Made by a program: the position numbers and the translations under genes. Under the pieces are notes generated by a model, which saw only the letters and a program-made list of their open reading frames with translations, was not told the DNA's origin and searched no databases. DNA of 64,000 bases from an uncultured Commensalibacter sp. (lineage in GTDB: Bacteria; Pseudomonadota; Alphaproteobacteria; Acetobacterales; Acetobacteraceae): the NCBI GenBank assembly GCA_946699565.1, contig CAMPDW010000005.1:20978-84977 (forward strand), written 5' to 3'. Below are positions 22,960 through 64,000 of this stretch, piece after piece. Numbering within the stretch: the first letter of the stretch is position 1; the number at the start of each line of letters is the position of its first letter.

Positions 22960-23159
22960 AATTTAATTCCTAAAAAATAAAAGTTAAATTATAAATAAAT
23001 ATTAAGCAATAACAATAATAAATTATTTCATCAAATTAACTATGTTTTTATCCTGTCTTATTTTATATAAATTTTAATTGTTTATTTACTTAATTTAAAA
23101 AAAACTCTTTTTTTATTAAAAAATTATTATATATTAAAAATGTTAGTTTTACTAACTAT

Positions 23160-28625: not shown

Positions 28626-29807
<1,182 letters not shown>

Positions 29808-48785: not shown

Positions 48786-50057
48786 TCAATCTTCAATAAC
48801 ATCTACCGGTGATTTTCCTAAAAATAAAGGAGGATTATGTCCCATAATAAGATCATTAATTAAATTGTTATAATTTATTAAATATTCACTCATTGATAAA
48901 GAATGTTCAGCCTCTTTACGAACGTAATATTTAATTTTACTTGACAAATATTCATTCTCAAGAACTTCCAAGACATTATCAGCAAGTATATTTTGATCAA
49001 AGAATGGGGTTAGAATTCCAGTTTTTTTATGAACAATAAATTCTTTTACAGGTTCGGTATCACTTGCGATTATTGAACATCCAGAAGCCATTGCTTCTCG
49101 TAAAGACCATGATAAAACAAAAGGATATGTCATATAAATATGAGCATCTGACCGTTTCAATAAATCGCAAAATATTGTATAAGGAACAACACCAGCAAAA
49201 TATATTCTTGAAAAATCCAACTCATTACTCAACTGTTGAAGAAAATAATTTTTCCAAGTTACATTTCCCGGCAACTGAGCCCCATAACTTACCTGATCTG
49301 CACCCACAATCACAATTTTAGCATCTGGACGTTCTTTTAAAATTTTAGGAAGCGCGCGCATTACAATATGGAACCCCCGATAAGGTTCCAATCCGCGTGC
49401 TATATACGTAACCAGTTTTTCCATAGGTTTAATAACGAAATTATCAATTTGCACATCTTTTTTATGAATCTCTTCATCTGGACAACATAGATTTAAATCA
49501 ACTCCTTCTCGTAAAACACTTATTTTTTTTCTTGCCCATTCAGGATAGGTCTTCCACTGAAATAACGTTGGAGACTGTCCCCAACCAGGATTATTAGCAG
49601 AAATTAAATTAATTGTATTTTTAATTCTTACACGCGAAGACAATAATTCATCGCTAGTAAATTCAGGATCGAAATTAACATCCAATCCATTTGAATGATA
49701 AAAAAATTCACAATATTTTAAAGTTGGAACATCAGGATAAATATCCTGAAGATTAAGCATTTCTCCCCAACCTTGATGACCAATAATAATATCTGGTTTA
49801 AATCCTAATTGTTTTAATTTTTGAATAGCATGAAAAGCAGCTTCACCACGTTTAACAGCTTGATAAAGCTCATTCAATGAAGAATGGGATTCGTTAATTG
49901 GAGGTATTTTATTATAAAATAAATTACGAACACCATCTATTGATCGTTTTGTAGGTTGACTTACAAATACAATCTCATTATCAGGCTGCTTAGCTAAATT
50001 TTTTACAATATGCAAAAACTGCCCGGGAAAATTTTGATGAATAAATAAATATTTCAC
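48786..50057 (-). CDS. Glycosyltransferase family 4 (GT-B fold)
   Basis: 423 aa, GTG start. N-terminus MKYLFIHQNFPGQFLHI. C-terminal donor-binding region PFVLSWSLREAMASGCSIIASDTEPVKEFI. Confidence 0.8.
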   Translation of the reverse strand: MKYLFIHQNFPGQFLHIVKNLAKQPDNEIVFVSQPTKRSIDGVRNLFYNKIPPINESHSSLNELYQAVKRGEAAFHAIQKLKQLGFKPDIIIGHQGWGEMLNLQDIYPDVPTLKYCEFFYHSNGLDVNFDPEFTSDELLSSRVRIKNTINLISANNPGWGQSPTLFQWKTYPEWARKKISVLREGVDLNLCCPDEEIHKKDVQIDNFVIKPMEKLVTYIARGLEPYRGFHIVMRALPKILKERPDAKIVIVGADQVSYGAQLPGNVTWKNYFLQQLSNELDFSRIYFAGVVPYTIFCDLLKRSDAHIYMTYPFVLSWSLREAMASGCSIIASDTEPVKEFIVHKKTGILTPFFDQNILADNVLEVLENEYLSSKIKYYVRKEAEHSLSMSEYLINYNNLINDLIMGHNPPLFLGKSPVDVIED

Positions 50058-50117
50058 AACTTTAAACGGTCTTAAAAATTATTTTATTTCATAATATTTT
50101 TATAGTTCATCAAACCC

Positions 50118-51188
50118 TTATTTATTTTTGTTCGTTTCAGAAAGATTTTTATGAGTATGATGAGGTGTTTTTATATTCGTGCGAGGATTAGCATTTTTGT
50201 TAACATCGATTTTTGTTAAAAATACATCACTGTCATTATCTTTTTGATTATCTATTTCCTGAAGTGTTTCATTATTAACAGAATCTTTATCAACATCCTC
50301 TTTACCTTTTTCTTTCAATTCCAAACAAAAAGCTTCAAGTGGAGAAATTGTTTCAGAAGATAAGATTGTATCATCACTGACTGGACCTAATTTTGTACCA
50401 TCAATGAATGTAGCTTTTAAACTCATATCAAATTTTTTTGCAGCTTCACTCGTTAAACGAACACGTAACCCACATAAAGGTAATGCCATACCACGACTAC
50501 CACAAAATTCATTACCCTTATACCAAGGAGAAAACCATCCCTTACCCAGTACAGCTTGATATTCTATATCATCAGGTTGAATACGATTATCCAAAGATAA
50601 ACCAAATCCCTCAATCCAAGTTTTACTATCAGGTATACCTACCCAATCACCAAATTCAACAGCAATATCACCCAAACGCTGAACATGAGCAACAACACGC
50701 ATTTTTCCTTCTTTAGCAATTTCTTCTTTTTGCTGTTCAGCAGCACTCATAGATTGTTCCTGAATTTTTTTATTTAATTCAGACATTTGTTCTTGAGAAT
50801 AACTTTTAAAGCTTTCTATATCAGGTGCATCGTTAAGACGAAGAACTTGTAATTGTGGAGATGGATGATTATTTTTTGGATTTTGATATACTGTTGCCAA
50901 GATTAAACCTGGCTGACCAGAAATACGGACTAAAATAGCATTTTTTTCAGCACCTAACCATCCATCATTCTCAAATGTCTTAATTTCAACCAATGCATCT
51001 TGTTTGAATGGAGGAACAGAAATACGTACGCCTGGAAAACCATATTCATCAGCTGGAATTTGATTGGTAACGTGATAAATACAATATAACCCTGTATTTA
51101 AACTCATTAAATAACCATTAACATTTAAATCAATAATTCGTTGATTATATTGGTTGTTATCCATTTGATTATTAGAATCAGACATCAA
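50118..51188 (-). CDS. Hypothetical protein (356 aa) with three ChW-like repeats and low-complexity termini
   Basis: No signal peptide. Repeats at aa 164-291: VVAHVQRLGD..GDWVG....WIEGFGLSL; IEYQAVLGKGWFSPWYKGNEFCGSRGMALPLCGLRVRL; LKATFIDGTKLGPVSDD...PLEAFCLEL. Confidence 0.6.
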   Translation of the reverse strand: MMSDSNNQMDNNQYNQRIIDLNVNGYLMSLNTGLYCIYHVTNQIPADEYGFPGVRISVPPFKQDALVEIKTFENDGWLGAEKNAILVRISGQPGLILATVYQNPKNNHPSPQLQVLRLNDAPDIESFKSYSQEQMSELNKKIQEQSMSAAEQQKEEIAKEGKMRVVAHVQRLGDIAVEFGDWVGIPDSKTWIEGFGLSLDNRIQPDDIEYQAVLGKGWFSPWYKGNEFCGSRGMALPLCGLRVRLTSEAAKKFDMSLKATFIDGTKLGPVSDDTILSSETISPLEAFCLELKEKGKEDVDKDSVNNETLQEIDNQKDNDSDVFLTKIDVNKNANPRTNIKTPHHTHKNLSETNKNK

Positions 51189-51329
51189 GCTATATCCTTT
51201 TTTAAAAACTATAATAATTTAGTAACATTTAAATGAATAGAATTCATAACATTAAAAAAACAATTTGATAATATTATTTTATAAAACAAAAATTAAAACT
51301 TTATTAAAAATAACATATTTAAATTACTT

Positions 51330-54300
51330 TTAACTTAAATTATGTTTACATTTATTTAATAAAAAATCATTTTGTTTAGTAATTGGCAAATTCAATGGAA
51401 TAACTTCTCCTCTTTTAGTTCGAACAATTCGTTCTGCAATTGCCCCAATATCGTAACTCACTGTTTTCAACCCTGCACGCCAAGCAATACTTAAAGAATA
51501 ACACCAAGTTTCTGGACATATAGATGGAAAAAAAGCTAAATGAGCATTCTGTTTTATAACTAAAGACAAAGCTTCTTCTTCTTTATACTCTCCTGTTACA
51601 AAAATACGACTAGAACGCATCAATAATTCATCATCAACGGATCGACCAATCAAAATAAATTCAAGAGGTAAATTACGTTTATCGGCATCTTGAAGAAGCG
51701 ATAAAATATTATTAAATCCTTTTTCAATACCAATTGCCCCAATAATACAAATACGAAAATGATTTTCTGATTGTTGAAAAGCATTTTTACAATAATTAAA
51801 TGAACGTGTCTTTTTTGAGAAATACGATAATTTTGTTAACGATAAATCTGGACGGTCATCCTCTAACTCTTTTAATTGAAGTTGTTTTAATCCAGGAAAA
51901 TGTCTTGATATCCGTTGTAACGAATCCTTAGAAGGAACATATATAGTACGAGCATTTTGCAACTGGTAACACGATTTTTTAATCCAATCTTCCATAACAA
52001 TTAAATTATCATGATCATCAAAATTAATCATAGAATTAACACAACTTTGACAAACTTGTAAATCACACGGATCACCACAATATTGTTTTGCCTCATTTAA
52101 TAAAACTGTTCTAGGGCAAAAAATTAAATAATCGTGAATATAAATATCATAAGGTTTATGTAATTTTATTAATAAATCAAAAAGGGATTCATGATGTTTT
52201 TTCAAATGATGGATTTCGTAAAAATGAATAGAAAATGTATTTAAAAATTCAATGAATATGTTTTCTTCGTTTGGGAAATAAAAAGTTAAATTTGGAAAAT
52301 TATATTCTATATCTTGATTCAAGGATTCTAAAGATTTGAACTGTATTTCAATTTTACAACCATCCCCAAATAAGGTCGGTCTCAATAAAATAGGAATAAT
52401 ATTTTTTAAACGTAAATTATTAACTCTTTCTTGTACGGCACGTTCGACCCCACCACCAAATTGATGGGTAATAATAAGTGAAAAATGATATTCAACATTT
52501 TTACGTTTGGCTTCATCAATTAAAATCCTTAATCGTTCCATATCAATTTTACGACGTATAGAAAAAAGCGAATTTTCTTGTATAAAATCTTGAATCATCT
52601 CATCATAACCAGGATATAATCGATTCAAAATTTTTGTATTTCTTTCTCCAAGAAGTTTACTTGAACGCTTAAAGGAAATACTACCTTTATGACCTACTAA
52701 ACAATCTGTTGCCAATACATGTTTCCATCCCAAATGTCTTGCTCGGATACAAAATTCATTCTCTTCTCCATATCCTTGAGCAAACAAATCCTCTCTAAAC
52801 AATCCTGCTTGTTTTAAACAATCATGTCTAATAAACATACAAAACCCGTGTGCAGTAGGAATTTCAGTAGTTTGATGTGCATTAACATACTGACAAATTT
52901 TTGAAAGTTTCAAAATTGTTTTAAGGGACGATATTTTATTTTCCTTATCATGGAAAGGATATGAAAAAATGCTTGCATTATTCGAAAAGGGTGTAACAGT
53001 ACCTATTGTTTTTTCGCTATAAGCTGCTTGATTTAAAGATTCAATCCATCCTTTCGTAACCAATGTATCACTATTGAGTAAAATAATATCATAATCAGGC
53101 CAAGCTTTTATTCCACTATTAACAGCACCTGGATAACCTTTGTTTTTATGATGATGAATACAAAAAACTTGTTTATCATCAACAAATTCATTTAAAGCTT
53201 CAATAAGCTCTACATCAGGAGAGCAATCATTAACCAATTGAACAATAATAGTTTTATTAATCGTTTTCATAACAGTTTTCAAAGTTTCTAAAGTTTCCTC
53301 TTTACCTTTGAAAATAGGAATAACAATAACAATGCCTAGGGAAGATTTAAAACCTATCTTAGGTTTTCCACCTCTATAATCTGCTTTTATAGGTAAAAAC
53401 TTTGGAAAATTATTAATCTTAATAGATTTTGCTTGTAAGGATTTATTTTGTATATCAACTAGACAATCCATACCTTCTTGTTCAATATGTGGTGATAAAG
53501 GACTACCTATTAGATTACATAAATATTCATCTTGAAATGAAAAAAATCCTGATGGAAAATCACTTTTCTTTATTGAAAAAGCTTTTGCCTGAAATAATGG
53601 AACTTCTAAATTCACTGCTTCAAGTGGATCTTTAACTAATATTTGATGAAATATATTGTTTTTTTGATCTCTAATTGTTAAATTTGCTATACGCTCTGGT
53701 TCAGATGGAAACCATAACCAGCCAATTACATTTTCATTTTTTACTTCGACAAATCCAACTGATTTATTAATTGTTTTTAATGAAATCGGACTTCCAATCA
53801 ATGGTTGATTATCTTTTTCTATTTTTAATTCATTAAAATTATTTAGGAAATCAGGAGAAAGAACAATCCTTTTTTGATTAGTTTGAATAAAAAGTTGGTT
53901 ATCTAGATAAATATTAACTGGATAACCCATAAAGGATTCAATCCAAATTTCATTTAAAGACCCTACAAAACAACAGCAACCTAATAAATGACCATTTTGT
54001 TTTAAAAGATTGATAGCTAAATGCCATATATTTTGTGTAGGACTATAATGAGCTAATAAATAATTTAAACTATAAAATAGTTGTTCATTTTTTTTTTGAG
54101 AGGAAAATATAACTGCCTGTGCTATCCACCCTTCATAAAAATCATAATTTTTCATTAGGGGCTGTAATAAATGATAAGCATCATTGATTTTCTTGGTCTT
54201 TAAATATAAAACAACCAAATCAAAAATAATATTGGGATTATTTCGCGTCAAACGATATGCTCTGTTCATCCACCGAAGAGCATTTTCAAAATTACCATTC

Positions 54301-54428
54301 TTTTTTTCAAGTTGAGCTAATTGATATGCATGTTGGGCATTTTGTCGAATTCTTTCTAACCCTTTAGCTTTTTCTTTTGCATAGTCTAATAATTTATTAC
54401 GATTATTTTCTAACACATTGTTTCTCAA
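51330..54428 (-). CDS. Soluble multidomain glycosyltransferase: N-terminal TPR, unknown middle region, GT2 (GT-A) domain, C-terminal GT-B/GT4-like region
   Basis: 1032 aa with no TM helices. TPR-like helices at aa 30-140. GT2 core at aa 365-600 (IVIVIPIFKGKEETLETL, VNDCSPD, ILLNSDT, GFCMFIR). C-terminal ITHQFGGGVERAV ... FFPSICPETWCYSLSIAWRAGL. Confidence 0.8.
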   Translation of the reverse strand: MRNNVLENNRNKLLDYAKEKAKGLERIRQNAQHAYQLAQLEKKNGNFENALRWMNRAYRLTRNNPNIIFDLVVLYLKTKKINDAYHLLQPLMKNYDFYEGWIAQAVIFSSQKKNEQLFYSLNYLLAHYSPTQNIWHLAINLLKQNGHLLGCCCFVGSLNEIWIESFMGYPVNIYLDNQLFIQTNQKRIVLSPDFLNNFNELKIEKDNQPLIGSPISLKTINKSVGFVEVKNENVIGWLWFPSEPERIANLTIRDQKNNIFHQILVKDPLEAVNLEVPLFQAKAFSIKKSDFPSGFFSFQDEYLCNLIGSPLSPHIEQEGMDCLVDIQNKSLQAKSIKINNFPKFLPIKADYRGGKPKIGFKSSLGIVIVIPIFKGKEETLETLKTVMKTINKTIIVQLVNDCSPDVELIEALNEFVDDKQVFCIHHHKNKGYPGAVNSGIKAWPDYDIILLNSDTLVTKGWIESLNQAAYSEKTIGTVTPFSNNASIFSYPFHDKENKISSLKTILKLSKICQYVNAHQTTEIPTAHGFCMFIRHDCLKQAGLFREDLFAQGYGEENEFCIRARHLGWKHVLATDCLVGHKGSISFKRSSKLLGERNTKILNRLYPGYDEMIQDFIQENSLFSIRRKIDMERLRILIDEAKRKNVEYHFSLIITHQFGGGVERAVQERVNNLRLKNIIPILLRPTLFGDGCKIEIQFKSLESLNQDIEYNFPNLTFYFPNEENIFIEFLNTFSIHFYEIHHLKKHHESLFDLLIKLHKPYDIYIHDYLIFCPRTVLLNEAKQYCGDPCDLQVCQSCVNSMINFDDHDNLIVMEDWIKKSCYQLQNARTIYVPSKDSLQRISRHFPGLKQLQLKELEDDRPDLSLTKLSYFSKKTRSFNYCKNAFQQSENHFRICIIGAIGIEKGFNNILSLLQDADKRNLPLEFILIGRSVDDELLMRSSRIFVTGEYKEEEALSLVIKQNAHLAFFPSICPETWCYSLSIAWRAGLKTVSYDIGAIAERIVRTKRGEVIPLNLPITKQNDFLLNKCKHNLS
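54088..54097 (-). repeat. A10 homopolymer (T10 on + strand) inside the multidomain glycosyltransferase ORF
   Basis: Minus-strand codons are caa aaa aaa aat (QKKN, aa 111-114). It is the longest coding homopolymer I noticed in the window. Confidence 0.9.
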
Positions 54429-54451
54429 TTAAGAAAAATTAATAAATTTCA

Positions 54452-56341
54452 TCATTTTTCTTCAAAAATAAATAAACCTGGAGCGACTTCTACCTGACCA
54501 CTCTTTTGATTTTCTTCTTTATTATTTACCTGATTTGCAATATTTTTTTTATCTTCTGCTTGAAGTAAACCATTCAAAGCATTTAATTCAATTTCTGCTT
54601 CTTTTTCGCCTGCTTTTTTTGCTTTTATAAACCAGTAACATGCTTTATCAACATCTTTTTCACCCGCAAGACCTTTTGATAAATAACGACCTAACATTAA
54701 TTGAGCTTTTGAATTACCTAATTCCGCTGATTTTTTAAACCATTTTTGAGCTTCAACTCTATTCTCTTGCACATGATTACCCCCACCATAAATTGCTCCT
54801 AATGAAAACATCCCAGAAGCACTTCCCTGTTGAGCAGCTTTATAGAAAAAAGCTATAGCTTCATCAGCACATATCTTTCCTATGTCTGTTGCCCCTTCCA
54901 ATAATAAACTAGCCCATAATAATTGTGCTTCTACATACCCTTGTTCAGCTGAAAATTTAATCCACTTACAACCTTCTTTAAGATTTTTTTCCTTAGCAAT
55001 TTCCTGTATAAGCAATCGTCCATACCAGTATTGAGCAACTTTGTCTTCCTGAGAACAAATTTTAAGCCATTTTTTTGCTTCACTTAATCTTTCAATATTT
55101 TTGTTTAAGTTATAACACTGTAATAAAGACAATGCTAATTTTAACATTATCTCTTTATTTCCTTTTTCTGCTTGAGGTCTTAAATAGTCCTGAACAACCT
55201 TTTCAAGAGAAATAAGCTCAGGATGAGTAACTGCCAAATCTGTTAATAAAATTAAGGCTGGAAGATAATTCTTTTCAGCTGCAAAAATAAAAAGCTGAAT
55301 AGCTCTATCCCTTGATTTTATAACACCCAAACCATTTAAAAAAAAATTACCTAAAGCAACAGCTGCACCAACGTGTCCTCCCTTTTCAACAGCAAAGTGA
55401 TACCATTTCGCTGCTTCTATATAATTTGGTGATTTATTTTCATCACCAAAAGCAAGCATATCACCTAAAACAGATGCAGCCTCGATATCCCCGCGAATAG
55501 AAGCGCGTCGCAACCAAGTTGCTGCTTCATCAAAATTTTTTTCAACCCCATTTCCTTTTCTTAAGGAAACGCCATATAAAGCCTGAGCTGATCGAACACC
55601 TAGCTCCGCAGCCTGTTTATATAATTTTGCAGCTTTCTCTCTGTTAATTTCAACCCCATTTCCCATTTCATACATCAAAGCCAAAGTATAGGCGGCTGTT
55701 CCTAAATTATTTTCTGCTGCAAATCCTAACAATCTTGCAACTTCTTTAAAATCATCTTGAGTTTTACTTGATTTAAGTAACAATAAACCTTTACCCATAT
55801 AACCTTGGGGACAACCTTGATCAATAGATTTATCATACCATTTTATTACTTCATCTATCTTACTTTTATCCTGTGATGTTTCAAGTAAGAGATGCGCATA
55901 TAAAGCTTCCCCTTCCGCTGATCCAGATTCAGCAGCTTGCTTTGCCCAATAACACGCTTTTTTATTATCAATTTTCAAATCTTGAGCATCTGTTATAGGC
56001 TTTGAACTAAATAAATCATGACCCGTTACATTCTGAACTTCTGGAAGTCCACGCATATATAACAAAGCAAGTATATATTGTGCATCAATATAATTTGCTT
56101 GAGCTGCGCTTTCCATCCACATAGCACCTTCAGATAGGCTTAAAGCAACCCCATGACCATTTAAATAACACAACCCAAGATAATATTGCGCTTCAGGAGA
56201 TTTTAATGCTGCCCCTTGAGAAAAATAATTATAGGCTTCATTATATTCCTTTCCATCATAAAATTTCTTGCCTGTAATTAAAAGCTTTTGCAGCTTTTTT
56301 TCCTTAAATTTATTAAAAGGGTTAAATAAGCTAGACATCAA
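54452..56341 (-). CDS. Sel1-like repeat (SLR) protein, no signal peptide
   Basis: 629 aa. About 13-15 SLR units (e.g. AQYYLGLCYLNGHGV, AAYTLALMYEMGNGV, AQALYGVSLRKGNGV, GMFSLGAIYGGGNHV, AQLMLGRYLSKGLAG). N-terminus MMSSLFNPFNKFKEKK is hydrophilic. Confidence 0.88.
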   Translation of the reverse strand: MMSSLFNPFNKFKEKKLQKLLITGKKFYDGKEYNEAYNYFSQGAALKSPEAQYYLGLCYLNGHGVALSLSEGAMWMESAAQANYIDAQYILALLYMRGLPEVQNVTGHDLFSSKPITDAQDLKIDNKKACYWAKQAAESGSAEGEALYAHLLLETSQDKSKIDEVIKWYDKSIDQGCPQGYMGKGLLLLKSSKTQDDFKEVARLLGFAAENNLGTAAYTLALMYEMGNGVEINREKAAKLYKQAAELGVRSAQALYGVSLRKGNGVEKNFDEAATWLRRASIRGDIEAASVLGDMLAFGDENKSPNYIEAAKWYHFAVEKGGHVGAAVALGNFFLNGLGVIKSRDRAIQLFIFAAEKNYLPALILLTDLAVTHPELISLEKVVQDYLRPQAEKGNKEIMLKLALSLLQCYNLNKNIERLSEAKKWLKICSQEDKVAQYWYGRLLIQEIAKEKNLKEGCKWIKFSAEQGYVEAQLLWASLLLEGATDIGKICADEAIAFFYKAAQQGSASGMFSLGAIYGGGNHVQENRVEAQKWFKKSAELGNSKAQLMLGRYLSKGLAGEKDVDKACYWFIKAKKAGEKEAEIELNALNGLLQAEDKKNIANQVNNKEENQKSGQVEVAPGLFIFEEK

Positions 56342-56374
56342 ATTATTCCTTAACGCATTAATCTTAACTCATAA

Positions 56375-57937
56375 CTATTGAGGATCGCGCATGCCTTCCG
56401 TTAACTGAGGAACAACACCATTCATCAAATATTGAGCAGCTGTACGTTTACCAACATGAATATCTGCTACCACTGTTAACCCAGGTGTAGGATGGAAAAA
56501 ATTAGGAACACTATGTAATGTATATTTATTAATTTTCATCCGAACACGATAAAAAGGTTTTTCCCTGAATTGTAGAGGTGCAGAACCACGACGATTGGCT
56601 GCATCTTGAGCAGTATCTCCAGGTTGAAAAACATCAGCACTAACATTGGTTATAACCGCTTCGGCACCACCGTATTGCGTATAAGGAAATGTATCAAATT
56701 TGATAATTGCCTTATCACCCAACTTCATATAACCAACTTCCTGATCTTCAACTGCTGCCTCAACCTCTAAACCTGTTCCAACTGGGATAAGGGTCATAAA
56801 TGGAACACCTGAATTGATAATAGAACCGACCGAGCCTTTTGCAATCGTTAAAACAATAGCATCCTGTTCAGCACGCATTAAGACTTTTTTTCGCCTAAGT
56901 TGAGCTTTCGTATATTCTCCTAAATTTTTTGAATGTTCTTTATCTTTTTCTTCTAAATCTTTGTAAACCTGAGCTTTCCAACTTTCTACATATGCTTTTT
57001 TATCGGCTTCTAAAGAAGCTATTTTCTTTTGCGTTGAATTTGCCGACTGTTGAGAAGAAATTAATTTATCCTCAATTTCCATTAATGAATCTTGAGAGGT
57101 TAATGTTGATAAACGACTACCTACTTGTTGCTCTTGTAATTTTTTTCTCATCGTATGAATATCAGTAGCAACTTGTAACCTCCCCTTTAACACAGCGGCC
57201 GTAGCCATAAAATTTTTCAACTGAAAATTCTGTTCATTAATTTTTTGATTAAACCCATCTATTTTTGCATCATACTCTAATTTACGTTTTAAAAAATTTT
57301 CTCCCTGTCTCACAGAATAAGGATTGGATAGATCAACTGTATAATTTTTATTATTGGATTCAGCACGCAGTCGATTAAGCTCAGCCTCTGAACTATCAAG
57401 TTGTAATTTTAAATTTTCAATATCAGCTTGCTGAACTGTTGGATCCAAATGTGCTAATATCTGACCCTTCGAAACAAAATCACCTTCTTTCACGTCAATA
57501 GATTTAATAATACTTGCTTCATAAGGTTGAATTAATAAAGGAGGATCAATTGAAACCAATCTTCCTTGAGCAGAAACAACTTTATCTAAAGGAAACACAC
57601 ATAACGCAATAATTGAAAAAACTGCCAATGCCCCAATAACCCATGTGATATATTGAGCAGATGCAGTAGGAGGCATATTAATAACCGCTGCTGTTGGTGA
57701 TGTAAACTCCAATAAAGCAATCGGCATATCCGCTTGAGATTCCTCTTCATTATCTGCTGAAGGCAAATATCCATCCGGAACACTAGCAAGTTCATTTAAC
57801 TCAGGAGCTTTATTCTCTTTAAGATCTTTCTTGGGAACCTCTACAACTTTTTGAGAAGTTGAATCTTTCTTATCTACTTCAGAACCTGTTGAATTAATCT
57901 TTTTAGATAATTTATTTTGCTCATTATCATCTATCAT
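56375..57937 (-). CDS. Type I secretion membrane fusion protein, HlyD family
   Basis: 520 aa. Cytoplasmic N-terminus of about 95 aa, single TM helix (WVIGALAVFSIIALCVFPL), long coiled-coil, lipoyl/beta-barrel segments (GDFVSKGQILAHLD, GLTVVADIHVGKRT). Confidence 0.9.
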   Translation of the reverse strand: MIDDNEQNKLSKKINSTGSEVDKKDSTSQKVVEVPKKDLKENKAPELNELASVPDGYLPSADNEEESQADMPIALLEFTSPTAAVINMPPTASAQYITWVIGALAVFSIIALCVFPLDKVVSAQGRLVSIDPPLLIQPYEASIIKSIDVKEGDFVSKGQILAHLDPTVQQADIENLKLQLDSSEAELNRLRAESNNKNYTVDLSNPYSVRQGENFLKRKLEYDAKIDGFNQKINEQNFQLKNFMATAAVLKGRLQVATDIHTMRKKLQEQQVGSRLSTLTSQDSLMEIEDKLISSQQSANSTQKKIASLEADKKAYVESWKAQVYKDLEEKDKEHSKNLGEYTKAQLRRKKVLMRAEQDAIVLTIAKGSVGSIINSGVPFMTLIPVGTGLEVEAAVEDQEVGYMKLGDKAIIKFDTFPYTQYGGAEAVITNVSADVFQPGDTAQDAANRRGSAPLQFREKPFYRVRMKINKYTLHSVPNFFHPTPGLTVVADIHVGKRTAAQYLMNGVVPQLTEGMRDPQ

Positions 57938-57939
57938 AA

Positions 57940-60231
57940 TTATGTACCCTCAGGAATTAATGATTGAGCACCACAATCATCATTTTGACCATCCTTATTA
58001 TTTCTTGAATGAGAATGATCATTTACATGACGATTTTGTTGTAACCATAAGGTTCGATAGATTTCGCAATTTTCAAGTAATTCTTCATGTGGACCAATTG
58101 CTTGCATTTCCCCCTGATCCATTACTAAAATTTTATCACAATTAACCAGAGAAGATAAACGGTGTGAAACAATTACCATTGTTCTCCCTTTAGCAATATG
58201 CTCCAAATTGGCATTAACTAAAGCTTCACTTTCAGGATCCAAAGCAGAAGTAGCCTCATCAAGAATCATCAATTTTGGGTCAAGAATAACTGCACGAGCA
58301 ATTGCAAGACGTTGTCTTTGCCCTCCAGAAATATTGGTTGACCCTTCTTCAATAAAAGTATCATAACCAGCAGGCATACGTTCAATAAATTCTTCTGCCC
58401 CAGCCATTCTTGCTGCCCAAATAACTTTTTCCATTGTTAGGCCTGGACGACCCGCAGTAATATTATCTTTAATTGTCCCACGGAATAAAAAGTTGTCCTG
58501 TAAAACAACACCAAATGAACGCCTTAAATGAGTTAAATTAATTTCACGTAAATCAACTCCATCCAATCTCAAGAATCCTTCATAATTTCGACTGACTCCT
58601 TGTAATAAACGTGTTATCGTTGATTTACCAGAACCGCTTCGTCCAACTAATCCCAACATTGTTCCTGCAGGAATAGAAAAGGTTACATTTTTCAAAGCAC
58701 GACTAGTTCCGCCTGGATAAGTAAAATTAATATGTTCAAAAGATAAAGCGCCTATAATTTTTGGTCTTAACCCTGTTGTAAGAGCTTTTGTTTCCGTTGG
58801 ATTATTTAAAATTTCACCTGCCTGTCCTAAAGCTGTACCAACTTCTGTTATTGTAGTCATTAATTTTGCCAATCCAACTAGGGGTGAAGCTACTCTTCCA
58901 CCTAACATCATAAATGCAACAATTGCACCCGAATCTACCCCTGCTGTTGGATTGGTAATACATATAAAAGCACCAATCAAAATAACACCTCGATTGATAA
59001 AAAAATCTAGAGGCATAACCAAAGTTTCAGGCCAATTCTGCATACGTGATGTTGCCAATCTCCATTTAGAAACATCTGCTATAATAGTATCCCACTCTCG
59101 TCTACGTGCTGGTTCTAAAGCTAATGTTTTAACAGTTCGAATCCCAGCAACACTTTCATACATTGCTGATCCTCTGGTCATTTCGGCTTCTATACGACTA
59201 CCATAATAATACCCCAAAGGTTTAATAAAGATAACAACAATTAAACCAATCATTCCAGCTGCAGTAATAGTTAACCACGCTAAAATAATACTAATGTAAA
59301 ATAAAAAAGGTAAAATAACGACTAACGTAAAAAGATCAAGAAAAGTCATCATTAATCGCCCAGTAATAAAATCTCTTACTTGATAGATTTGGGCAACTTT
59401 TCCAATAACACGCCCCGCTTGTTGACGTTCAAAAAATTCTAGAGGCAAGGCAAGTAAACGATTATACGTATGAATGGAAATACGTGCATCTAAACGAGTT
59501 CCCATAACATTGGTCAATTCTCGTCTAGCATAACTCATTAAAACTTCATAAAAACTTAAAACAATCAAAAGACCAGTAATAGAAACTAATGTTGCCATGG
59601 ATTGGAACGCAACAACTCTATTAACAACCTGCATAACTATAAAAGCTGGAAAAATCTGTAAAACACTTATAATCATAGAACTGATCGAAATATCACGCAA
59701 AGATGTTCGTTCACGTAAGACCATACGGAAAAGCCATTTAAAATCTATCTTTTCTTCACTTTCAGATAGCTTTTTATTAGCTTTTACCAGTAAAATATCA
59801 CCTGTCCAAGCCTGTCTCAAACGAACTTCTTCAACGGCAATTGGTGGAGTACCTTCTTCTTTTAAGGGATCTCTTAAAAAAACTATTCTTTTTTGAGGAT
59901 TTACACCTACCATTAACCCCGCGGAACCGTCCTTAAACATTAACACAATAGGAGGTGAATTATACAAACGAATCAAATACCTCCACTTCAAACGCATTCC
60001 CTTGGCAATTAATCCTTGACTATTCAGCCATCGCGCTAAAGTAGCAGGTGAAGGTGAGGATTCCCCTGGCTCAGCTGCAAAATCACGTATATCAAGATCA
60101 ATACCGTGATATTTTGCAGCGGCCATTGTTGCGCGTAAACGGATCATCATTGGAGAAAGCTTATGGGGTTTCTCTTGATTATTGCTTTGTTCCGCTCCTG
60201 ATTGTATGGAGCCTTTATCTGGTTGATCCAC
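57940..60231 (-). CDS. Type I secretion ABC transporter (HlyB-like) with N-terminal C39-like domain lacking catalytic residues
   Basis: 763 aa. N-terminal domain AAAKYHGIDL...PPIVLMFKDG...GDILLVK, six-TM exporter core, Walker A GRSGSGKST, signature ISGGQRQRLAIARA, Walker B LMILDEATSALD. Its stop lies 2 nt from the HlyD start. Confidence 0.92.
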   Translation of the reverse strand: MDQPDKGSIQSGAEQSNNQEKPHKLSPMMIRLRATMAAAKYHGIDLDIRDFAAEPGESSPSPATLARWLNSQGLIAKGMRLKWRYLIRLYNSPPIVLMFKDGSAGLMVGVNPQKRIVFLRDPLKEEGTPPIAVEEVRLRQAWTGDILLVKANKKLSESEEKIDFKWLFRMVLRERTSLRDISISSMIISVLQIFPAFIVMQVVNRVVAFQSMATLVSITGLLIVLSFYEVLMSYARRELTNVMGTRLDARISIHTYNRLLALPLEFFERQQAGRVIGKVAQIYQVRDFITGRLMMTFLDLFTLVVILPFLFYISIILAWLTITAAGMIGLIVVIFIKPLGYYYGSRIEAEMTRGSAMYESVAGIRTVKTLALEPARRREWDTIIADVSKWRLATSRMQNWPETLVMPLDFFINRGVILIGAFICITNPTAGVDSGAIVAFMMLGGRVASPLVGLAKLMTTITEVGTALGQAGEILNNPTETKALTTGLRPKIIGALSFEHINFTYPGGTSRALKNVTFSIPAGTMLGLVGRSGSGKSTITRLLQGVSRNYEGFLRLDGVDLREINLTHLRRSFGVVLQDNFLFRGTIKDNITAGRPGLTMEKVIWAARMAGAEEFIERMPAGYDTFIEEGSTNISGGQRQRLAIARAVILDPKLMILDEATSALDPESEALVNANLEHIAKGRTMVIVSHRLSSLVNCDKILVMDQGEMQAIGPHEELLENCEIYRTLWLQQNRHVNDHSHSRNNKDGQNDDCGAQSLIPEGT

Positions 60232-60631
60232 CGATCATCCTTTATCAACTAAAGTTAACAAAATTACTTAAATTCTTTTATAGAATTATATCGACACATC
60301 GACTTTATATCATTTAAAAACTTAAAATTAGACATAAATATGAATTTTTATTTTAAATCAATCCAAATATTTTTCATTATATTTTTCATTTAAAATCTTT
60401 CTAGGTATTATCATATAATTAAAAAAAATTAAAGTCTTATATGTTACGAATTAGCAATAAATAAATCCAAAAAATATTCATATTTTTTACATAACTTACT
60501 TTTATAATGCAACATAAATAATTCTATAAATTTAATGATTTATTCGTAATAAATATCGAAAAAGAGTTTTTATTTTACTAAAATATGTTAAGTATTTCTG
60601 TAATTTTTTTCATCAACCATTAAGATTTCAA

Positions 60632-63600
60632 ATGTTTAAACAAAACCAACTTTTAAATCAGCTCCATGAACAAATTCTTTTGTGTGATGGAGGGATGGGG
60701 TCCATTATTCAAACCCTTGATCTTGATACTCAAAAAGATTTTTGGGGCAAAGAAAATTGTACTGAAATTCTTAATTTATCTAAACCTGAATTAATTAGAG
60801 ATATTCATAAACGTTATTTCTCAGCTGGTGCGGATATGGTGGAAACAAATTCTTTTGGAGGTTCGTCCATAACCCTTTCAGAATTTGATCTTCAGGACCA
60901 AACAAGGGAAATTAATAAACGTGCTGCTGAAATCGCTAATGAGGCAGCCAACACATTTGCGGATCATAAAAAAAGATATATTCTTGGATCCATTGGTCCA
61001 GGGACACGATTGCCTTCACTAGGCAATATTGATTACGATTCACTCGAGCAAGCAATTACCGAACAATGCCGAGGATTAATTGATGGTGGAGTACATGCAT
61101 TTTTAATTGAAACATGCCAAGATCCACTTCAAATTAAAGCTGCTGTTAATGCAGCAAGAATAGCTCAAAAAGAAGCAAGCATTTTTTTACCAATTTTCGT
61201 ACAAGTTACGATTGAAACAACGGGAACCCTTCTCGTTGGGAGTGACATTGCTGCTGCTGCCACGGTTATTGAAGCACTTGACGTTCAAATGATGGGAATG
61301 AATTGCGGAACTGGGCCCCGAGAAATGGCAGAAGGTATTAAATGGCTTTCCCAATACTGGCCACATTTAATTTCCATGCAACCTAATGCAGGGTTACCAG
61401 AATTGGTGAACGGAAAAACACATTATCCGCTTTCACCAGAAGAAATGGCTATTTGGATGGCGCGTTATATAAAAGAACAAAAAATCAATATGATTGGAGG
61501 ATGTTGTGGAACCAATCCAAATCATATCGCTGCCTTTGATCAAATGCTTAAAAAAGAAGCTGAACAAGGAGGGAGAGCCACAGATCGTCCTGCAAGCATT
61601 CCAAGAAGCTCCATTTGGATTCCCTCTGTTTCAAGCCTTTTTAGTCCGACACCGCTTCGGCAAGAAAATAGTTTGTTTTCGATTGGTGAACGGTGCAATG
61701 CAAATGGTTCAAAAAAATGGCGTGATTTACAAGATCAACAAGATTGGGATAGCTGTGTTACGGTAGGAAAAGAGCAATTAAAAGAAGGTTCCAATGCTTT
61801 GGATGTTTGTATGGCGTTTGTTGGTCATGATGAAAAAAAGGAAATGAGCAAGATTATTCCTCGCTTTACTTCATCAATTAATATCCCATTAGTCATAGAT
61901 TCTACGAGTACTGAAGTCATTGAAGCATGTCTAAAACTGCATGGCGGTAAACCAATTATTAATTCAATTAATTTTGAAGATGGTGAAACTATTGCGGCCC
62001 AAAGATTAGAGTTGGCCCGTAAATTTGGTGCTGCTGTTGTTGCCTTAACCATAGATGAAGAAGGAATGGCACGAACTCCAGAAGATAAATTACGAATTGC
62101 CCGTCGTTTAGTTGATTTTGCTTGTCATAAATATGGTTTACCCCAATCCGATCTAATGATTGATCCTTTAACCTTTACGATTGCTACTGGTGTTGAGAAT
62201 GATCGTAAATTAGGGCTATGGACATTACAAGGTATCAAAGCCATTCATGATGAATTTCCCGATATTCAAATTGTACTCGGATTATCCAATATTTCTTTCG
62301 GTCTTAATCCAGCAGCTAGAGCAGTTTTAAATTCTGTCTTTCTCTATCATGCTCAACAAATGGGTATGACTGCCGCTATTGTGCATGTATCAAAAATACG
62401 TCCGATACATCTACTTGATAAGGGAGAAGTAAAAATTATCGAAGATTTGATTTTTGATCAACGAACAAAAGAATATGACCCTTTAAAAAAAGTATTAGAA
62501 ATTTTTGCAGATCGTAAAACAACTCAAATCGCCACTCGTACAACTGCTACTACAATTGAAGAACAACTCCATGATCGTATTGTTGATGGCAATCGTAAAG
62601 GTTTAGAAGATGATCTAAAAAAAGCCATGAAAATTTATACCCCATTAGAAATCATCAATACATTATTACTCAATGGTATGAAAACGGTTGGTAAATTATT
62701 TGGATCAGGGAAAATGCAGCTTCCTTTCGTTCTCCAATCCGCTGAAACAATGAAGGCTGCTGTATCCTTTCTCGAGCCTTTTATGGAAAAGAAAAATAAT
62801 GAAACCAAAGGAACAATAGTTCTTGCCACAGTTAAAGGTGATGTCCATGACATAGGGAAAAACCTCGTTGATATCATACTAAGTAATAATGGTTTTAAGG
62901 TTGTTAATTTGGGTATTAAAGTTCCTGTTGCAGATATGATTCAAGCAGCTAGGGAACATCAAGCCGATGCGATTGGTATGTCAGGATTATTAGTCAAATC
63001 TACGGTTGTCATGAAAGAAAATCTTGAAGAAATGGCGCGACAAGGATTGAATATACCTGTCCTACTTGGGGGCGCAGCCTTGACACGGACTTATGTTGAG
63101 AAAGATTGCACTGACACGTACAAGAAAAATAATGGGCTAGTTGCTTATGCAAGGGATGCTTTTGATGGGTTAACCCTTATGGAAAAACTAACCGATGGTA
63201 ATTTAGAAAATTATCTTGAAGCACAAAAAATTAAAAATAAAAAACCGAAACGTCCCGAGAAAAAAGAAGTTCCAGTCATCCTCCCTTTTACTAAAGAAGA
63301 GGCAACAGCTCGAAGAAGGAAACTCATAATACAAGAACCTCCTCTTAATCCACCTTTCTGGGGGACAAGAAGACTTGAAACAAGTTTAAAAGCCATTCTA
63401 CCCTTTTTAAATAAACGTTCCCTATATCAATTACAATGGGGAATGAAAAAACAGGGTAAAACGCTGGAGGAATTCCTTCAAAGTGCCAAGAGTAATTTGC
63501 ATCCTATTTTAAATAAATTAATTCAGCAATGTGAAAAGGAAAAAATCTTACAGCCACAAGCTGTTTATGGTTACTGGAAAGCCGCTGCAAGTGCAGAAAA

Positions 63601-64000
63601 TTTAATTTTATTTAATGAAGATGGAAAAACTGAACTTTGTTGTTTTGCACTTCCAAGGCAACTAGAGAATAATCGTATCTGTATTACTGATTATATCCGA
63701 GATATTAATGATCCCATTCGTGATGTAATTGGCTTGCAAATAGTTACAGTTGGTCAACATGCTTCAGATATAGCCAGAATTTGGTTTGAAGAAAACCGTT
63801 ATCAAGATTATTTATATTTGCATGGATTATCTGTTGAAATGACGGAGGCAATGGCCGAATATACTCATCAAAAAATGAGGAATGAATTGGGATTTAGTCA
63901 TGAGGATGATCCCAATATCGATAATTTATTAATGCAGAATTATCGAGGATCTAGATATTCTTTTGGTTACCCAGCCTGTCCCAATCTTGAAGATCAAAAA
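60632..64000 (+). CDS. metH: Cobalamin-dependent methionine synthase (N-terminal 1123 codons; continues past window end)
   Basis: Absent from the ORF track because it stays open to the window end. ATG at 60632: MFKQNQLLNQLHEQILLCDGGMGS. Hcy domain with MNCGTGP and GGCCGTNP (about 61.5 kb). Pterin-binding domain. B12-binding GDVHDIGKN (DxHxxG, about 62.84 kb), then SGLL and GGA. Start of the AdoMet-activation domain. Confidence 0.93.
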   Translation, partial: MFKQNQLLNQLHEQILLCDGGMGSIIQTLDLDTQKDFWGKENCTEILNLSKPELIRDIHKRYFSAGADMVETNSFGGSSITLSEFDLQDQTREINKRAAEIANEAANTFADHKKRYILGSIGPGTRLPSLGNIDYDSLEQAITEQCRGLIDGGVHAFLIETCQDPLQIKAAVNAARIAQKEASIFLPIFVQVTIETTGTLLVGSDIAAAATVIEALDVQMMGMNCGTGPREMAEGIKWLSQYWPHLISMQPNAGLPELVNGKTHYPLSPEEMAIWMARYIKEQKINMIGGCCGTNPNHIAAFDQMLKKEAEQGGRATDRPASIPRSSIWIPSVSSLFSPTPLRQENSLFSIGERCNANGSKKWRDLQDQQDWDSCVTVGKEQLKEGSNALDVCMAFVGHDEKKEMSKIIPRFTSSINIPLVIDSTSTEVIEACLKLHGGKPIINSINFEDGETIAAQRLELARKFGAAVVALTIDEEGMARTPEDKLRIARRLVDFACHKYGLPQSDLMIDPLTFTIATGVENDRKLGLWTLQGIKAIHDEFPDIQIVLGLSNISFGLNPAARAVLNSVFLYHAQQMGMTAAIVHVSKIRPIHLLDKGEVKIIEDLIFDQRTKEYDPLKKVLEIFADRKTTQIATRTTATTIEEQLHDRIVDGNRKGLEDDLKKAMKIYTPLEIINTLLLNGMKTVGKLFGSGKMQLPFVLQSAETMKAAVSFLEPFMEKKNNETKGTIVLATVKGDVHDIGKNLVDIILSNNGFKVVNLGIKVPVADMIQAAREHQADAIGMSGLLVKSTVVMKENLEEMARQGLNIPVLLGGAALTRTYVEKDCTDTYKKNNGLVAYARDAFDGLTLMEKLTDGNLENYLEAQKIKNKKPKRPEKKEVPVILPFTKEEATARRRKLIIQEPPLNPPFWGTRRLETSLKAILPFLNKRSLYQLQWGMKKQGKTLEEFLQSAKSNLHPILNKLIQQCEKEKILQPQAVYGYWKAAASAENLILFNEDGKTELCCFALPRQLENNRICITDYIRDINDPIRDVIGLQIVTVGQHASDIARIWFEENRYQDYLYLHGLSVEMTEAMAEYTHQKMRNELGFSHEDDPNIDNLLMQNYRGSRYSFGYPACPNLEDQK

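Follow-up and report, generated by a model that had tools for sequence, protein, structure and literature searches.

A predicted six-gene operon of the Acetobacteraceae in which a type I secretion pump is linked to glycosyltransferase genes

What does a type I secretion system (T1SS) pump export when the genes beside it encode glycosyltransferases rather than an RTX protein? This question is raised by a 64,000-nucleotide stretch of a contig from an uncultured Commensalibacter sp. (hereafter the window). It carries six co-directional, intact minus-strand open reading frames (ORFs) that encode, in order, an ABC exporter, a HlyD-family membrane fusion protein (MFP), a Sel1-repeat protein, a large TPR-GT2-GT-B protein ("GTbig"), a ChW-like protein and a GT4 glycosyltransferase. 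The ORF list of the window bears out the gaps given in a preliminary description, namely 2, 33, 23, 141 and 60 nt counted from the ABC gene. ORF bounds take the start codon that gives the longest ORF, in several cases TTG or GTG, and the true starts may lie a few codons further downstream; the database copy of the ChW-like protein has 355 aa, against 356 aa in the longest-ORF call. Pfam and NCBIfam scans uphold the domain content claimed earlier (a T1SS pair, Sel1, TPR-GT2-GT-B and GT4, with three glycosyltransferase domains), and a literature search found no account of this six-gene composition, for which the preliminary description likewise knew of no described system and which is apparently unstudied. 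Our best reading, held only tentatively, is that the operon is an RTX-less Acetobacteraceae version, with a C39-like domain (CLD)-type exporter, of EPS II-like systems that couple a T1SS to a glycan. To our knowledge, the only studied relative of such systems is the EPS II cluster of Sinorhizobium meliloti.

Gene order and strand are identical in each of 57 complete loci across the Acetobacteraceae that hold the six families, which places the arrangement far beyond chance. The genera concerned are Commensalibacter, Acetobacter, Gluconobacter, Gluconacetobacter, Asaia, Acidomonas, Ameyamaea, Saccharibacter, Acidiphilium, Acidocella, Acidisoma and Lichenicoccus. As for co-occurrence, which the preliminary description had left to a neighbourhood search, the full set of six families is present in 52 of the 58 genome loci that have flanks of at least 7 kb on either side. 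The genes flanking the cluster vary from genus to genus. Upstream, a divergent metH-like ORF runs off the window end, and loci L001 and L002 have an annotated metH in the corresponding position; downstream lies an NMT1/ABC importer whose adjacency is not kept in Acetobacter. Between the ABC gene and the metH-like gene, the sequence reads as an AT-rich divergent intergenic region of 416 nt (60232..60647, no strand assigned), which is probably the promoter region of the operon; promoter-like matches within it do not exceed shuffle expectation, and we claim no specific promoter. The gene set recurs in shuffled order in a second, high-GC clade and in a metagenome contig, and the families are found together in other orders at loci L003 (with a TolC-like OEP gene), L103, L121, L123, L134, L153 and L163. 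The Azospirillum locus L081 keeps five of the six families, with no Sel1 match in the stretch examined. On comparative sequence grounds, the six genes are a real operon with an order conserved across the acetic-acid-bacteria family and, in our best reading, one functional unit.

All profiles place the pump itself, a CLD-type exporter with a HlyD partner, among polypeptide secretors (HlyB/LssB for the ABC protein, type_I_hlyD for the MFP), as had been claimed. The ABC exporter (763 aa; 57940..60231, minus strand) consists of an N-terminal C39-like domain, a six-helix TMD and an NBD, matches PF00664 (ABC_membrane) and PF00005 (ABC_tran), and carries a Walker A motif (GRSGSGKST), a signature (SGGQRQR) and a Walker B motif (ILDEATSALD). 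Its best NCBIfam model is the HlyB-type TIGR01846, aligned from residues 34-733 to model positions 4-693 of 694 with a score of 503.7 bits, which does not reach the cutoff (725.55). The C39-like domain (59752..60156, minus strand, about aa 26-160) scores a sub-threshold 15.1 bits on Peptidase_C39 (cutoff 22), whereas the orthologues from clade 2 and Azospirillum reach 29.9 and 30.4 bits. It lacks the catalytic cysteine, with no cysteine at all in the scanned stretch aa 26-162, and reads as a dead C39 domain; searched alone against the HlyB CLD, it matches only at E about 1. The domain is conserved in both clades, RTX-linked and RTX-less. The MFP (520 aa; 56375..57937, minus strand) matches PF13437 and scores 288.5 bits on TIGR01843, above the cutoff of 208.65; about 90 cytoplasmic residues at its N-terminus precede one TM helix (a single hydrophobic segment, 92-124). 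Where the Acetobacteraceae lack the RTX gene, no other part of the operon is packed as tightly as the pump genes. The polypeptide-secreting profiles and the retention of the CLD weigh against our best reading, and we know of no HlyB-type ABC exporter shown to move a polysaccharide.

The pump resembles CLD-containing HlyB/HlyD/TolC systems in having an ABC protein that aligns end to end with HlyB (PDB 7sgr, over 37-729, E 5.6e-107), an N-terminal C39-like domain that likewise lacks the catalytic cysteine, and a HlyD-type MFP above the family cutoff. In HlyB, the CLD binds the unfolded RTX substrate. However, the window ABC falls below the cutoffs of both curated T1SS subfamilies, its operon has no RTX substrate, acyltransferase or TolC gene, and its partners are glycosyltransferases and repeat scaffolds. 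The reported lack of an RTX substrate and a TolC-like gene was confirmed: no window ORF has at least two GGxGxD motifs or matches the RTX partner queries, and none of the 36 window proteins scanned against Pfam matches the OEP/TolC family. Glycocin systems (for sublancin, the GT2 enzyme SunS and the C39-ABC protein SunT) also pair a cytoplasmic glycosyltransferase with a C39-type ABC exporter, and there the C39 domain is an active peptidase that cleaves the leader of a small peptide cargo. The cysteine-less domain of the window differs from this, and the interval from the ABC start to the divergent metH-like gene contains no ORF of 30 aa or more.

Over 92% of its length, the ExpC-like GT4 enzyme (423 aa; 48786..50057, minus strand; PF12000, Glyco_trans_4_3, and PF00534, Glycos_transf_1) shares 38% identity with the product of the expC-position gene of S. 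meliloti 1021 (pSymB 984629-985795), a gene that carries PF12000, lies between a MarR gene and a DUF6212 gene, and adjoins T1SS genes. This match strengthens ExpD1/ExpD2, already named in the preliminary description, as the nearest precedent. Other GT4 homologues lie in rfb, polysaccharide or pyruvyl-transferase clusters of Azospirillum, Bradyrhizobium and Phaeobacter. By homology, the glycosyltransferase genes of the operon are of the polysaccharide type. The EPS II (galactoglucan) exp/wg cluster comprises the ExpD1/ExpD2 T1SS, the RTX protein ExpE1, ExpC and other glycosyltransferases; as in the window, an ABC-HlyD pair is embedded in a glycan-synthesis cluster, and genetic evidence shows that the glycan depends on the T1SS (PMC1403797). 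Like GTbig, an 893-aa bifunctional enzyme of that cluster has a GT2 domain followed by a GT4 domain, the order seen in S. meliloti WgaB. However, GTbig shares only generic glycosyltransferase-domain similarity with the EPS II enzymes (31-43 bits, 20% identity), and the S. meliloti ABC protein is shorter (589 aa), has no C39-like domain and scores 192 bits on the family HMM. The S. meliloti cluster has neither a Sel1 nor a ChW protein, and the window, in turn, has no RTX gene, dTDP-sugar genes, pyruvyl transferases, methyltransferase or MarR regulator. The operon is only distantly related to the EPS II cluster.

GTbig (1032 aa; 51330..54428, minus strand) has 1157 homologues. Pfam finds TPR, Glycos_transf_2 and a weak Glycos_transf_1 in it, and its AlphaFold model (pLDDT 90.9, pTM 0.89) arranges these as a TPR module, two beta-sandwich domains, a GT-A (GT2) domain, a helical linker and a GT-B domain. 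The TPR module (aa 1-145; 53994..54428, minus strand) shows helical repeats H2-H144 in the model and weak TPR_19 and ANAPC3 matches. The GT2 catalytic domain (aa 366-600; 52629..53333, minus strand) matches PF00535 at 368-539 and PF13641 at 366-581, and the GT-B domain (aa 648-1031; 51336..52487, minus strand) matches PF00534 and PF13692 at 887-1011 and has Rossmann-pair secondary structure in the model. In Foldseek, the former matches ppGalNAc-T and other GT-A enzymes, and the latter MshA/BshA. In alignments of 15 and of 66 sequences, D401, D454 and E555/E556 are invariant in GT-A, as are G897, K903 and PETW972-975 in GT-B. Four cysteines (771, 784, 793 and 796) are all invariant among the 15 sequences; among the 66, the first two remain invariant and the others are at least 90% conserved. 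We propose that GTbig is a bifunctional glycan polymerase. Across the GT2-GT-B core (aa 366-1022), GTbig shares 28% identity with a 1188-aa glycosyltransferase of an rfbBADC-GT2-wzm-wzt-GT cluster on E. coli plasmid CP099148, known from annotation only; that protein scores 497 bits on the family HMM and is likewise soluble with no TM segment. The HMM and tblastn matches cover the GT2-GT-B core only, and the exporter there is of the Wzm/Wzt type rather than HlyB/HlyD. In Azospirillum brasilense, too, the glycosyltransferase module stands beside Wzm/Wzt, and its glycan could leave by that ordinary route, an observation that speaks against our best reading.

The ChW-like "Hydrophobic W" protein (356 aa; 50118..51188, minus strand; PF07538, 22.2 bits at a cutoff of 22) had been described as an orphan; it has 1971 homologues, some of them named "Hydrophobic W protein", and is no orphan. 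It comprises an N-terminal beta-sandwich, a long helix, a ChW-repeat beta domain and a disordered tail (model pLDDT 78), and a fold search against the PDB gave no match at E <0.1. The whole protein (HMM 8-297 of 347) is fused to the C-terminus of GTbig in three independent loci (L003, L087 and L088) and throughout metagenomic clade 2. This fusion suggests an enzyme subunit and not a cargo, and we propose that the ChW-like protein is a non-catalytic subunit of GTbig. None of the four non-transporter proteins has a TM-like hydrophobic segment (HlyD has one), in keeping with the claim that the glycosyltransferases and repeat proteins are soluble.

Could the pump instead export a protein encoded elsewhere in the genome? 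Such a cargo, RTX-like or with another C-terminal signal, would be glycosylated by GTbig/GT4 or, like ExpE1, be needed outside the cell for the glycan, free glycan leaving otherwise. We consider this possible but doubtful. The option, which the preliminary description had not raised, arises because an RTX gene adjoins GTbig in relatives: directly upstream of GTbig::ChW (<400 bp), 24 of 28 fused-clade loci encode a small RTX protein whose C-terminal block is conserved and of the T1SS type. RTX-like ORFs also occur in L003, L081, L087 and L088, and beside GTbig paralogues in L052, L053 and L077. The EPS II order of RTX (ExpE1), GT2, methyltransferase and GT4 mirrors the fused-clade relatives, and ExpE1 secretion needs ExpD1/ExpD2. 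Also in favour are the CLD common to RTX-linked and RTX-less clades, the TPR module of GTbig, which would suit a protein acceptor, and Lichenicoccus roseus, where an RTX-GTbig pair occurs at a separate locus (L052) in addition to the six-gene operon (L027). Against it, RTX-like ORFs are absent from the window, as they are within 10 kb of every six-gene locus, and the best 120 matches to a profile of the RTX partners include no named protein from Commensalibacter, Acetobacter or Gluconobacter, which is weak evidence. An elsewhere-encoded cargo also leaves unexplained why pump and glycosyltransferases are linked exactly where the RTX gene is missing; that the pump is kept there suggests that it does more than export an RTX partner. 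In the sister clade, the RTX protein is the tightest partner of GTbig and the pump is within reach in only 3 of 12 loci. This counts against our best reading, and the ancestral role of the pump may have been plain RTX export.

The preliminary description had offered the Sel1 protein or the 356-aa protein as a T1SS cargo, and this proposal is weakened for both, by the place of Sel1 beside an RTX partner and by the ChW-GTbig fusion; that a possibly glycosylated Sel1 protein is exported now seems improbable. The protein (629 aa; 54452..56341, minus strand; PF08238, 165.6 bits) is soluble and built entirely of Sel1 repeats, in six stretches by Pfam. It forms an orthologous family of its own, linked to the pump genes: orthologues score 200-900 bits on the family HMM, against about 30 bits for unrelated Sel1 proteins, and the gene directly follows HlyD in both clades (in L003, L123, L134, L153 and L163 as well). 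That position, the lack of a signal peptide or TM segment, and the mildly acidic last 60 residues of the window protein (pI 5.1) would suit a cargo, and in Rickettsiales ankyrins, likewise proteins of helical repeats, are reported to be secreted by a T1SS. However, the repeats reach to about 10-40 residues from the C-terminus, leaving a short tail that is not conserved in length or charge (pI 4.3 to 11.9 among orthologues), the window protein has 8 Cys, and a solenoid should fold in the cytoplasm. In the fused clade, moreover, the RTX partner co-exists with a Sel1 protein that is merely longer, by repeat duplication. Retention beside an RTX partner makes Sel1 look like an accessory, and we propose that it is a cytoplasmic adaptor or scaffold.

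It is very improbable that the pump and glycosyltransferase genes are mere neighbours, inherited together with no shared function. Vertical inheritance could account for the conserved order within Acetobacteraceae, metH is also upstream in two genera, and the scarcity of the pump in fused-clade loci points the same way; yet the linkage recurs with other gene orders and strands in Azospirillum and on unrelated contigs, conservation does not extend to the downstream flank, and the pump, Sel1 and GTbig genes lie 2-33 nt apart. Export of the ChW-like protein is scarcely credible, for although ChW repeats are known from extracellular clostridial proteins and this one lies within the operon with no signal peptide, the whole protein is fused in several lineages to the C-terminus of a cytoplasmic 1000-aa enzyme, conservation covers its first 80% and not the C-terminus, and its variable, low-complexity tail, strongly basic in 37 of 39 orthologues (median pI 11.6), is unlike known T1SS signals.

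The other proposal of the preliminary description, export of a glycoconjugate with Sel1 and TPR modules as scaffolds, is a better fit, if unproven. A partial parallel exists in the S. meliloti BgsA/BgsB/TolC and cyanobacterial cellulose tripartite systems, in which a HlyD-family adaptor and TolC are proposed to export glucans across the envelope (PMC13438883); we claim no homology, and the inner-membrane partner there is a membrane-embedded synthase and not an ABC exporter, whereas the window glycosyltransferases are soluble. The operon has no initiating enzyme, sugar-nucleotide gene or TolC, which also tells against our best reading. Under that reading, of an RTX-less relative of EPS II-type systems, the ExpC-like GT4 and the bifunctional GTbig would build a repeating glycan in the cytoplasm; GTbig joins a GT2-type GT-A to a GT4-like GT-B, which would suit alternating linkages, and the ChW-like protein would serve it as a non-catalytic subunit. 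We infer that this enzyme complex docks at the cytoplasmic face of the CLD-ABC/HlyD pump through the all-Sel1 protein and the TPR module of GTbig. With a TolC-type channel whose gene lies elsewhere, the pump would then carry a glycan-bearing product across both membranes, and this product would be either a polymer free of lipid or a glycan attached to a carrier protein.

Six intact open reading frames occupy the minus strand at 48786-60231 and encode, in order, an ABC exporter (ABC), a membrane fusion protein (HlyD), a Sel1-repeat protein (Sel1), a 1032-aa TPR-GT2-GT-B glycosyltransferase (GTbig), a 356-aa protein (ChW) and a GT4 glycosyltransferase (GT4). The ORF list reproduces the intergenic gaps of the preliminary description (2, 33, 23, 141 and 60 nt), which are measured from longest-ORF starts, the true starts possibly lying a few codons downstream. 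None of these gaps contains a terminator-like hairpin, and a promoter and terminator scan gave counts no higher than shuffle expectation, a result that says nothing on operon structure. On the 5' side, a 416-nt AT-rich spacer separates the operon from a divergent metH-like gene (~60648-64000, plus strand, start MFKQNQLLNQLHEQILLCDGGMGS), which extends past the window end and so is absent from the ORF list; the gene-free look of this 3.7-kb stretch is only apparent. A metH gene is annotated in the same upstream place in Commensalibacter oyaizuii and Acetobacter ascendens. Downstream of the operon the window has an NMT1-type ABC importer, and because the downstream neighbours in Commensalibacter are unlike those in Acetobacter, we take the conserved unit to be the six genes.

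The window is AT-rich (GC ~31%), and its nearest proteins are from Commensalibacter (61-67% identity), followed by other Acetobacteraceae. A permuted two-piece tmRNA at 23104-23409 on the plus strand (RF01849, 252 bits, tag peptide ANDNFEAHAIAA) marks it as alphaproteobacterial. Elsewhere it holds three queuosine-pathway genes within 11 kb of the plus strand (QueA-type Queuosine_synth, 26119-27171; TGT, 28665-29807; QueG, 35654-36700) and several ORFs with no Pfam match at E <= 1e-5. These are a 585-aa ORF at 4764-6521 (minus strand), two adjacent minus-strand ORFs (20110-21510 and 21529-22959; ~470 aa apiece), perhaps paralogous envelope proteins, both bearing a hydrophobic anchor at the N-terminus, and a 471-aa protein rich in hydrophobic stretches (24592-26007, plus strand), which by eye resembles an ArnT/PMT-type membrane glycosyltransferase.

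A search of species-representative genomes with a GTbig alignment confirmed at least 571 loci, and we mapped the six families on 80 of the loci from this search together with the C. oyaizuii and A. ascendens loci. That the families belong together, as supposed earlier from a single genome, was borne out: all 57 complete loci carry ABC, HlyD, Sel1, GTbig, ChW and GT4 in this order on one strand, and of the 58 loci flanked by 7 kb or more on each side, 52 hold all six families. The operon occurs in Commensalibacter, Acetobacter, Gluconobacter, Gluconacetobacter, Asaia and Acidomonas, and also in Ameyamaea, Saccharibacter, Acidiphilium, Acidocella, Acidisoma and Lichenicoccus. A second clade of ~62% GC emerged when metagenomes were scanned from a distant member as seed; in it the same families are linked in changed orders and orientations (loci L103, L121, L123, L134, L153 and L163). 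At the Azospirillum doebereinerae locus the pump genes are divergent from RTX, GTbig, ChW and GT4, and no match to Sel1 was found in the sequence around it. Persistence of linkage through rearrangement argues that the families share a function. The data establish the six genes as a conserved functional module.

Two metagenome-assembled contigs appeared to carry the genes beyond the Alphaproteobacteria, but we rejected this spread since both look mis-binned. The contig labelled Janthinobacterium lividum has GTbig-ChW-GT4 between Acetobacteraceae-like flanks that are those of the window (pyrophosphatase, ABC-F, GNAT, MlaC, MlaA), and the contig labelled uncultured Bifidobacterium has the six-gene operon in the Acetobacteraceae order; both are probably mis-binned. 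Separately, the Acetobacter aceti plasmid pAAJCM20276_1 (NZ_AP023327.1, 25397-58569) bears a second, partly decayed copy of the glycosyltransferase part of the cluster, where an IS66 element splits GT2 and hypothetical genes from ChW and GT4, with a Hint-domain protein nearby.

The first two genes encode the pump. The ABC protein contains Pfam ABC_membrane (PF00664) and ABC_tran (PF00005) and aligns over its full length to TIGR01846, the HlyB-type model that is its best NCBIfam match (503.7 bits, cutoff 725.55), and to TIGR03375 (457.9 bits, cutoff 693.1), both scores lying below the cutoffs. Its best bacterial PDB match is HlyB (residues 37-729, E 5.6e-107). The N-terminal domain scores 15.1 bits against Peptidase_C39 in the window, below the cutoff of 22, and 29.9 and 30.4 bits, above it, in two orthologues; by itself it matches the C39-like domain (CLD) of HlyB in the PDB at E ~1. 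We base the CLD assignment on the full-length HlyB-type alignments and the Pfam matches in orthologues. The "dead C39" label given to this domain at the outset holds, as orthologues pass the Pfam cutoff, both clades keep the domain, and the scanned residues 26-162 of the window protein contain no cysteine. HlyD has a single TM helix and exceeds the cutoff of the T1SS adaptor model TIGR01843 (288.5 against 208.65 bits, covering 4-421 of 422 positions). These results indicate a pump of the polypeptide-secreting type with a dead C39 domain. No OEP/TolC family member was found among the 36 window proteins scanned, and a TolC-like OEP gene is linked to the cluster solely in one variant locus (L003). 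Because tolC genes are often unlinked to their T1SS, this does not exclude pump function.

The remaining four proteins, Sel1, GTbig, ChW and GT4, have no TM-like hydrophobic segment. The predicted model of GTbig (pLDDT 90.9, pTM 0.89) resolves into a TPR module and two beta-sandwich domains, then GT-A and GT-B domains with a helical linker between them. Its sequence has no PDB match at E <= 0.01, and the top Foldseek matches of the model are polypeptide GalNAc-transferases at 14-20% identity; we rejected these as a sign of protein glycosylation, as generic GT-A domains commonly match that PDB-rich family. The GT-B region has four cysteines in its first half (771, 784, 793 and 796). All are invariant in 15 homologues, and among 66 homologues the first two remain invariant and the last two are at least 90% conserved, which suggests a structural metal site. 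The family has the motif PETW(C/S)(Y/F) in place of the usual GT4 EX7E context. The GT2-GT-B core shares 28% identity with a 1188-aa glycosyltransferase of a plasmid cluster reading rfbBADC, GT2, wzm, wzt, GT.

GT4 contains the Pfam pair PF12000 and PF00534, and in the PDB its sequence finds generic GT4 enzymes only (PimA, BshA, MshA). Across 92% of its length it shares 38% identity with the product of Sinorhizobium meliloti pSymB 984629-985795, which scores 355 bits against the GT4 family HMM and has the same Pfam pair. That gene occupies the expC position in the EPS II cluster and adjoins a MarR regulator gene and T1SS genes, with an RTX gene further out. Other GT4 homologues lie within polysaccharide clusters of Azospirillum, Phaeobacter and Bradyrhizobium, the Phaeobacter one with an RTX gene and a T1SS ~4 kb away. 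The data thus establish that the glycosyltransferases of the operon derive from polysaccharide-building lineages.

ChW had been described as an orphan, a label that does not survive the 1971 homologues found at E <= 0.001, several of them named "Hydrophobic W protein" in UniRef. Its match to PF07538 is marginal (22.2 bits, cutoff 22; a single stretch at 215-246), and most homologues have a precomputed match to the same family. The predicted model has a long helix linking two beta domains, followed by a disordered tail. Since Foldseek gave no match at E < 0.1, and hence no solved relative of the predicted fold, we draw no function from it; the sequence itself gave chance matches only in the PDB. 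Conservation covers about the first 80% of the protein, whereas the tail varies, is of low complexity and in 37 of 39 orthologues is strongly basic (median pI 11.6). In three further loci (L003, L087 and the Azospirillum brasilense locus) and in all of the high-GC clade, the C-terminus of GTbig carries the whole ChW protein (HMM positions 8-297 of 347) as a fusion. Because it is joined there to a cytoplasmic enzyme of ~1000 residues, we propose that ChW is a subunit or domain of GTbig.

These fused relatives also have a partner that is absent from the window. In 24 of the 28 fused-clade loci with enough upstream sequence, a small RTX-like ORF ends less than 400 bp before the fused gene, and its product combines repeats of the GxGNDT type with a conserved C-terminal block of the kind usual in T1SS substrates. 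RTX and GTbig are likewise paired at the A. doebereinerae and A. brasilense loci and at L003 and L087, and RTX adjoins GTbig paralogues in the absence of the other operon genes at L052, L053 and L077. On plasmid p5 of the well-studied strain A. brasilense Sp7 (NZ_CP012919.1, 35920-43306) a calcium-binding protein, a 1396-aa GTbig::ChW, a methyltransferase and a GT4 sit amid wzm/wzt, rfb, gmhA and an M10 (serralysin-type) protease gene, and in S. meliloti the parallel gene order is ExpE1, GT2, methyltransferase, GT4. No window ORF contains more than one GGxGxD motif or is matched by the RTX partner queries, and none of the six-gene operon loci has an RTX-like ORF within 10 kb. The best 120 matches to an RTX-partner profile include no named Commensalibacter, Acetobacter or Gluconobacter protein, which does not in itself prove absence. 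In the Acetobacteraceae the adjacent RTX gene was either lost or never present.

Among known systems the operon stands closest to the S. meliloti EPS II cluster, whose galactoglucan was shown by genetics decades ago to need a T1SS and its RTX protein (PMC1403797). Both loci place a T1SS amid glycan genes and encode an ExpC-like PF12000 GT4 and a GT2-GT4 bifunctional enzyme. The S. meliloti enzyme with the GT2-then-GT4 order of GTbig is the product of an 893-aa ORF, taken by us to be WgaB, that lies downstream of the DUF6212 gene; orthology of GTbig to any S. meliloti Exp glycosyltransferase was rejected, since GTbig shares only generic domain similarity with WgeB, WgeD and WgaB. The pumps also differ: the window ABC has a CLD, whereas the ExpD1-type ABC of EPS II is PrtD-like with no N-terminal domain, and the 589-aa S. 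meliloti protein matches the ABC family HMM distantly (192 bits, positions 182-718 only). Sel1, ChW and GTbig set the window operon apart from EPS II, and the window cluster in turn lacks the RTX protein ExpE1, dTDP-sugar genes, pyruvyl transferases, the methyltransferase and the ExpA/ExpE glycosyltransferases. The ABC-2 exporter pair of the Wzm/Wzt O-antigen pathway is missing from the window cluster, although it stands beside homologues at the A. brasilense locus and at L089. Glycocin-type C39-ABC exporters have a catalytic Cys/His peptidase and a small precursor gene, whereas the C39-like domain of the window lacks the cysteine, and the spacer from the ABC start to the divergent metH-like gene contains no ORF of 30 aa or more. 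MFP-TolC glucan export is a functional analogy only (PMC13438883). Literature searches on T1SS with glycosyltransferase, Sel1, hydrophobic W or Acetobacter/Gluconobacter, and on pRhico, returned nothing relevant; the earlier impression that no system of this composition has been described stands, as no account of the operon was found.

We tentatively hypothesize that the operon encodes a coupled machine. GT4, GTbig and ChW would form a cytoplasmic complex, the Sel1 and TPR solenoids would tether it to the CLD-bearing ABC protein, and its glycan-bearing product would leave through HlyD and a TolC encoded elsewhere. We favour this reading because Acetobacteraceae with no adjacent RTX gene still keep pump, Sel1 and GTbig together with gaps of 2-33 nt. 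In the chief rival, which we consider possible though somewhat unlikely, the cargo of the pump is a protein whose gene lies elsewhere and which is glycosylated by, or cooperates with, the glycosyltransferase module, as ExpE1 does genetically in EPS II (PMC1403797). Lichenicoccus roseus, whose genome contains both the six-gene operon and a separate pair of RTX and GTbig paralogue, is a natural system in which to ask whether the operon pump serves an unlinked RTX partner.

It is unlikely that the HlyB-type ABC, HlyD and TolC directly extrude a glycan polymerised, lipid-free or protein-primed, by the soluble enzymes, with the cytoplasmic Sel1 and TPR solenoids passing the chain to the pump by way of its dead C39 domain. 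If true, direct extrusion would define a separate way of exporting polysaccharides, alongside the Wzx/Wzy, Wzm/Wzt and synthase-dependent pathways, and would account for the T1SS need of the EPS II cluster. The preliminary description had offered Sel1 or ChW as a glycosylated cargo. For Sel1, whose repeats span from about residue 30 almost to its end, we regard this as quite improbable. That the pump and glycosyltransferase genes are mere neighbours is very improbable given that their linkage recurs in changed gene orders. Export of ChW is scarcely credible: a protein fused to cytoplasmic GTbig, with a variable and strongly basic tail, is probably not a cargo.

Under the coupled-machine hypothesis a role can be offered for the "Hydrophobic W" protein, the Sel1 protein linked to the pump and the TPR-GT2-GT-B enzyme, three families so far uncharacterised. 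The operon is a compact relative of EPS II, with six genes and no RTX gene in one transcription-sized block, and its hosts are genetically tractable, industrially important acetic acid bacteria and insect-gut symbionts. It offers a simpler case in which to ask whether glycans or glycoconjugates can be the cargo of a T1SS. Even if the glycan turns out to be a normal surface polysaccharide, the operon would still represent a family-wide, so far unnamed envelope trait of the Acetobacteraceae.
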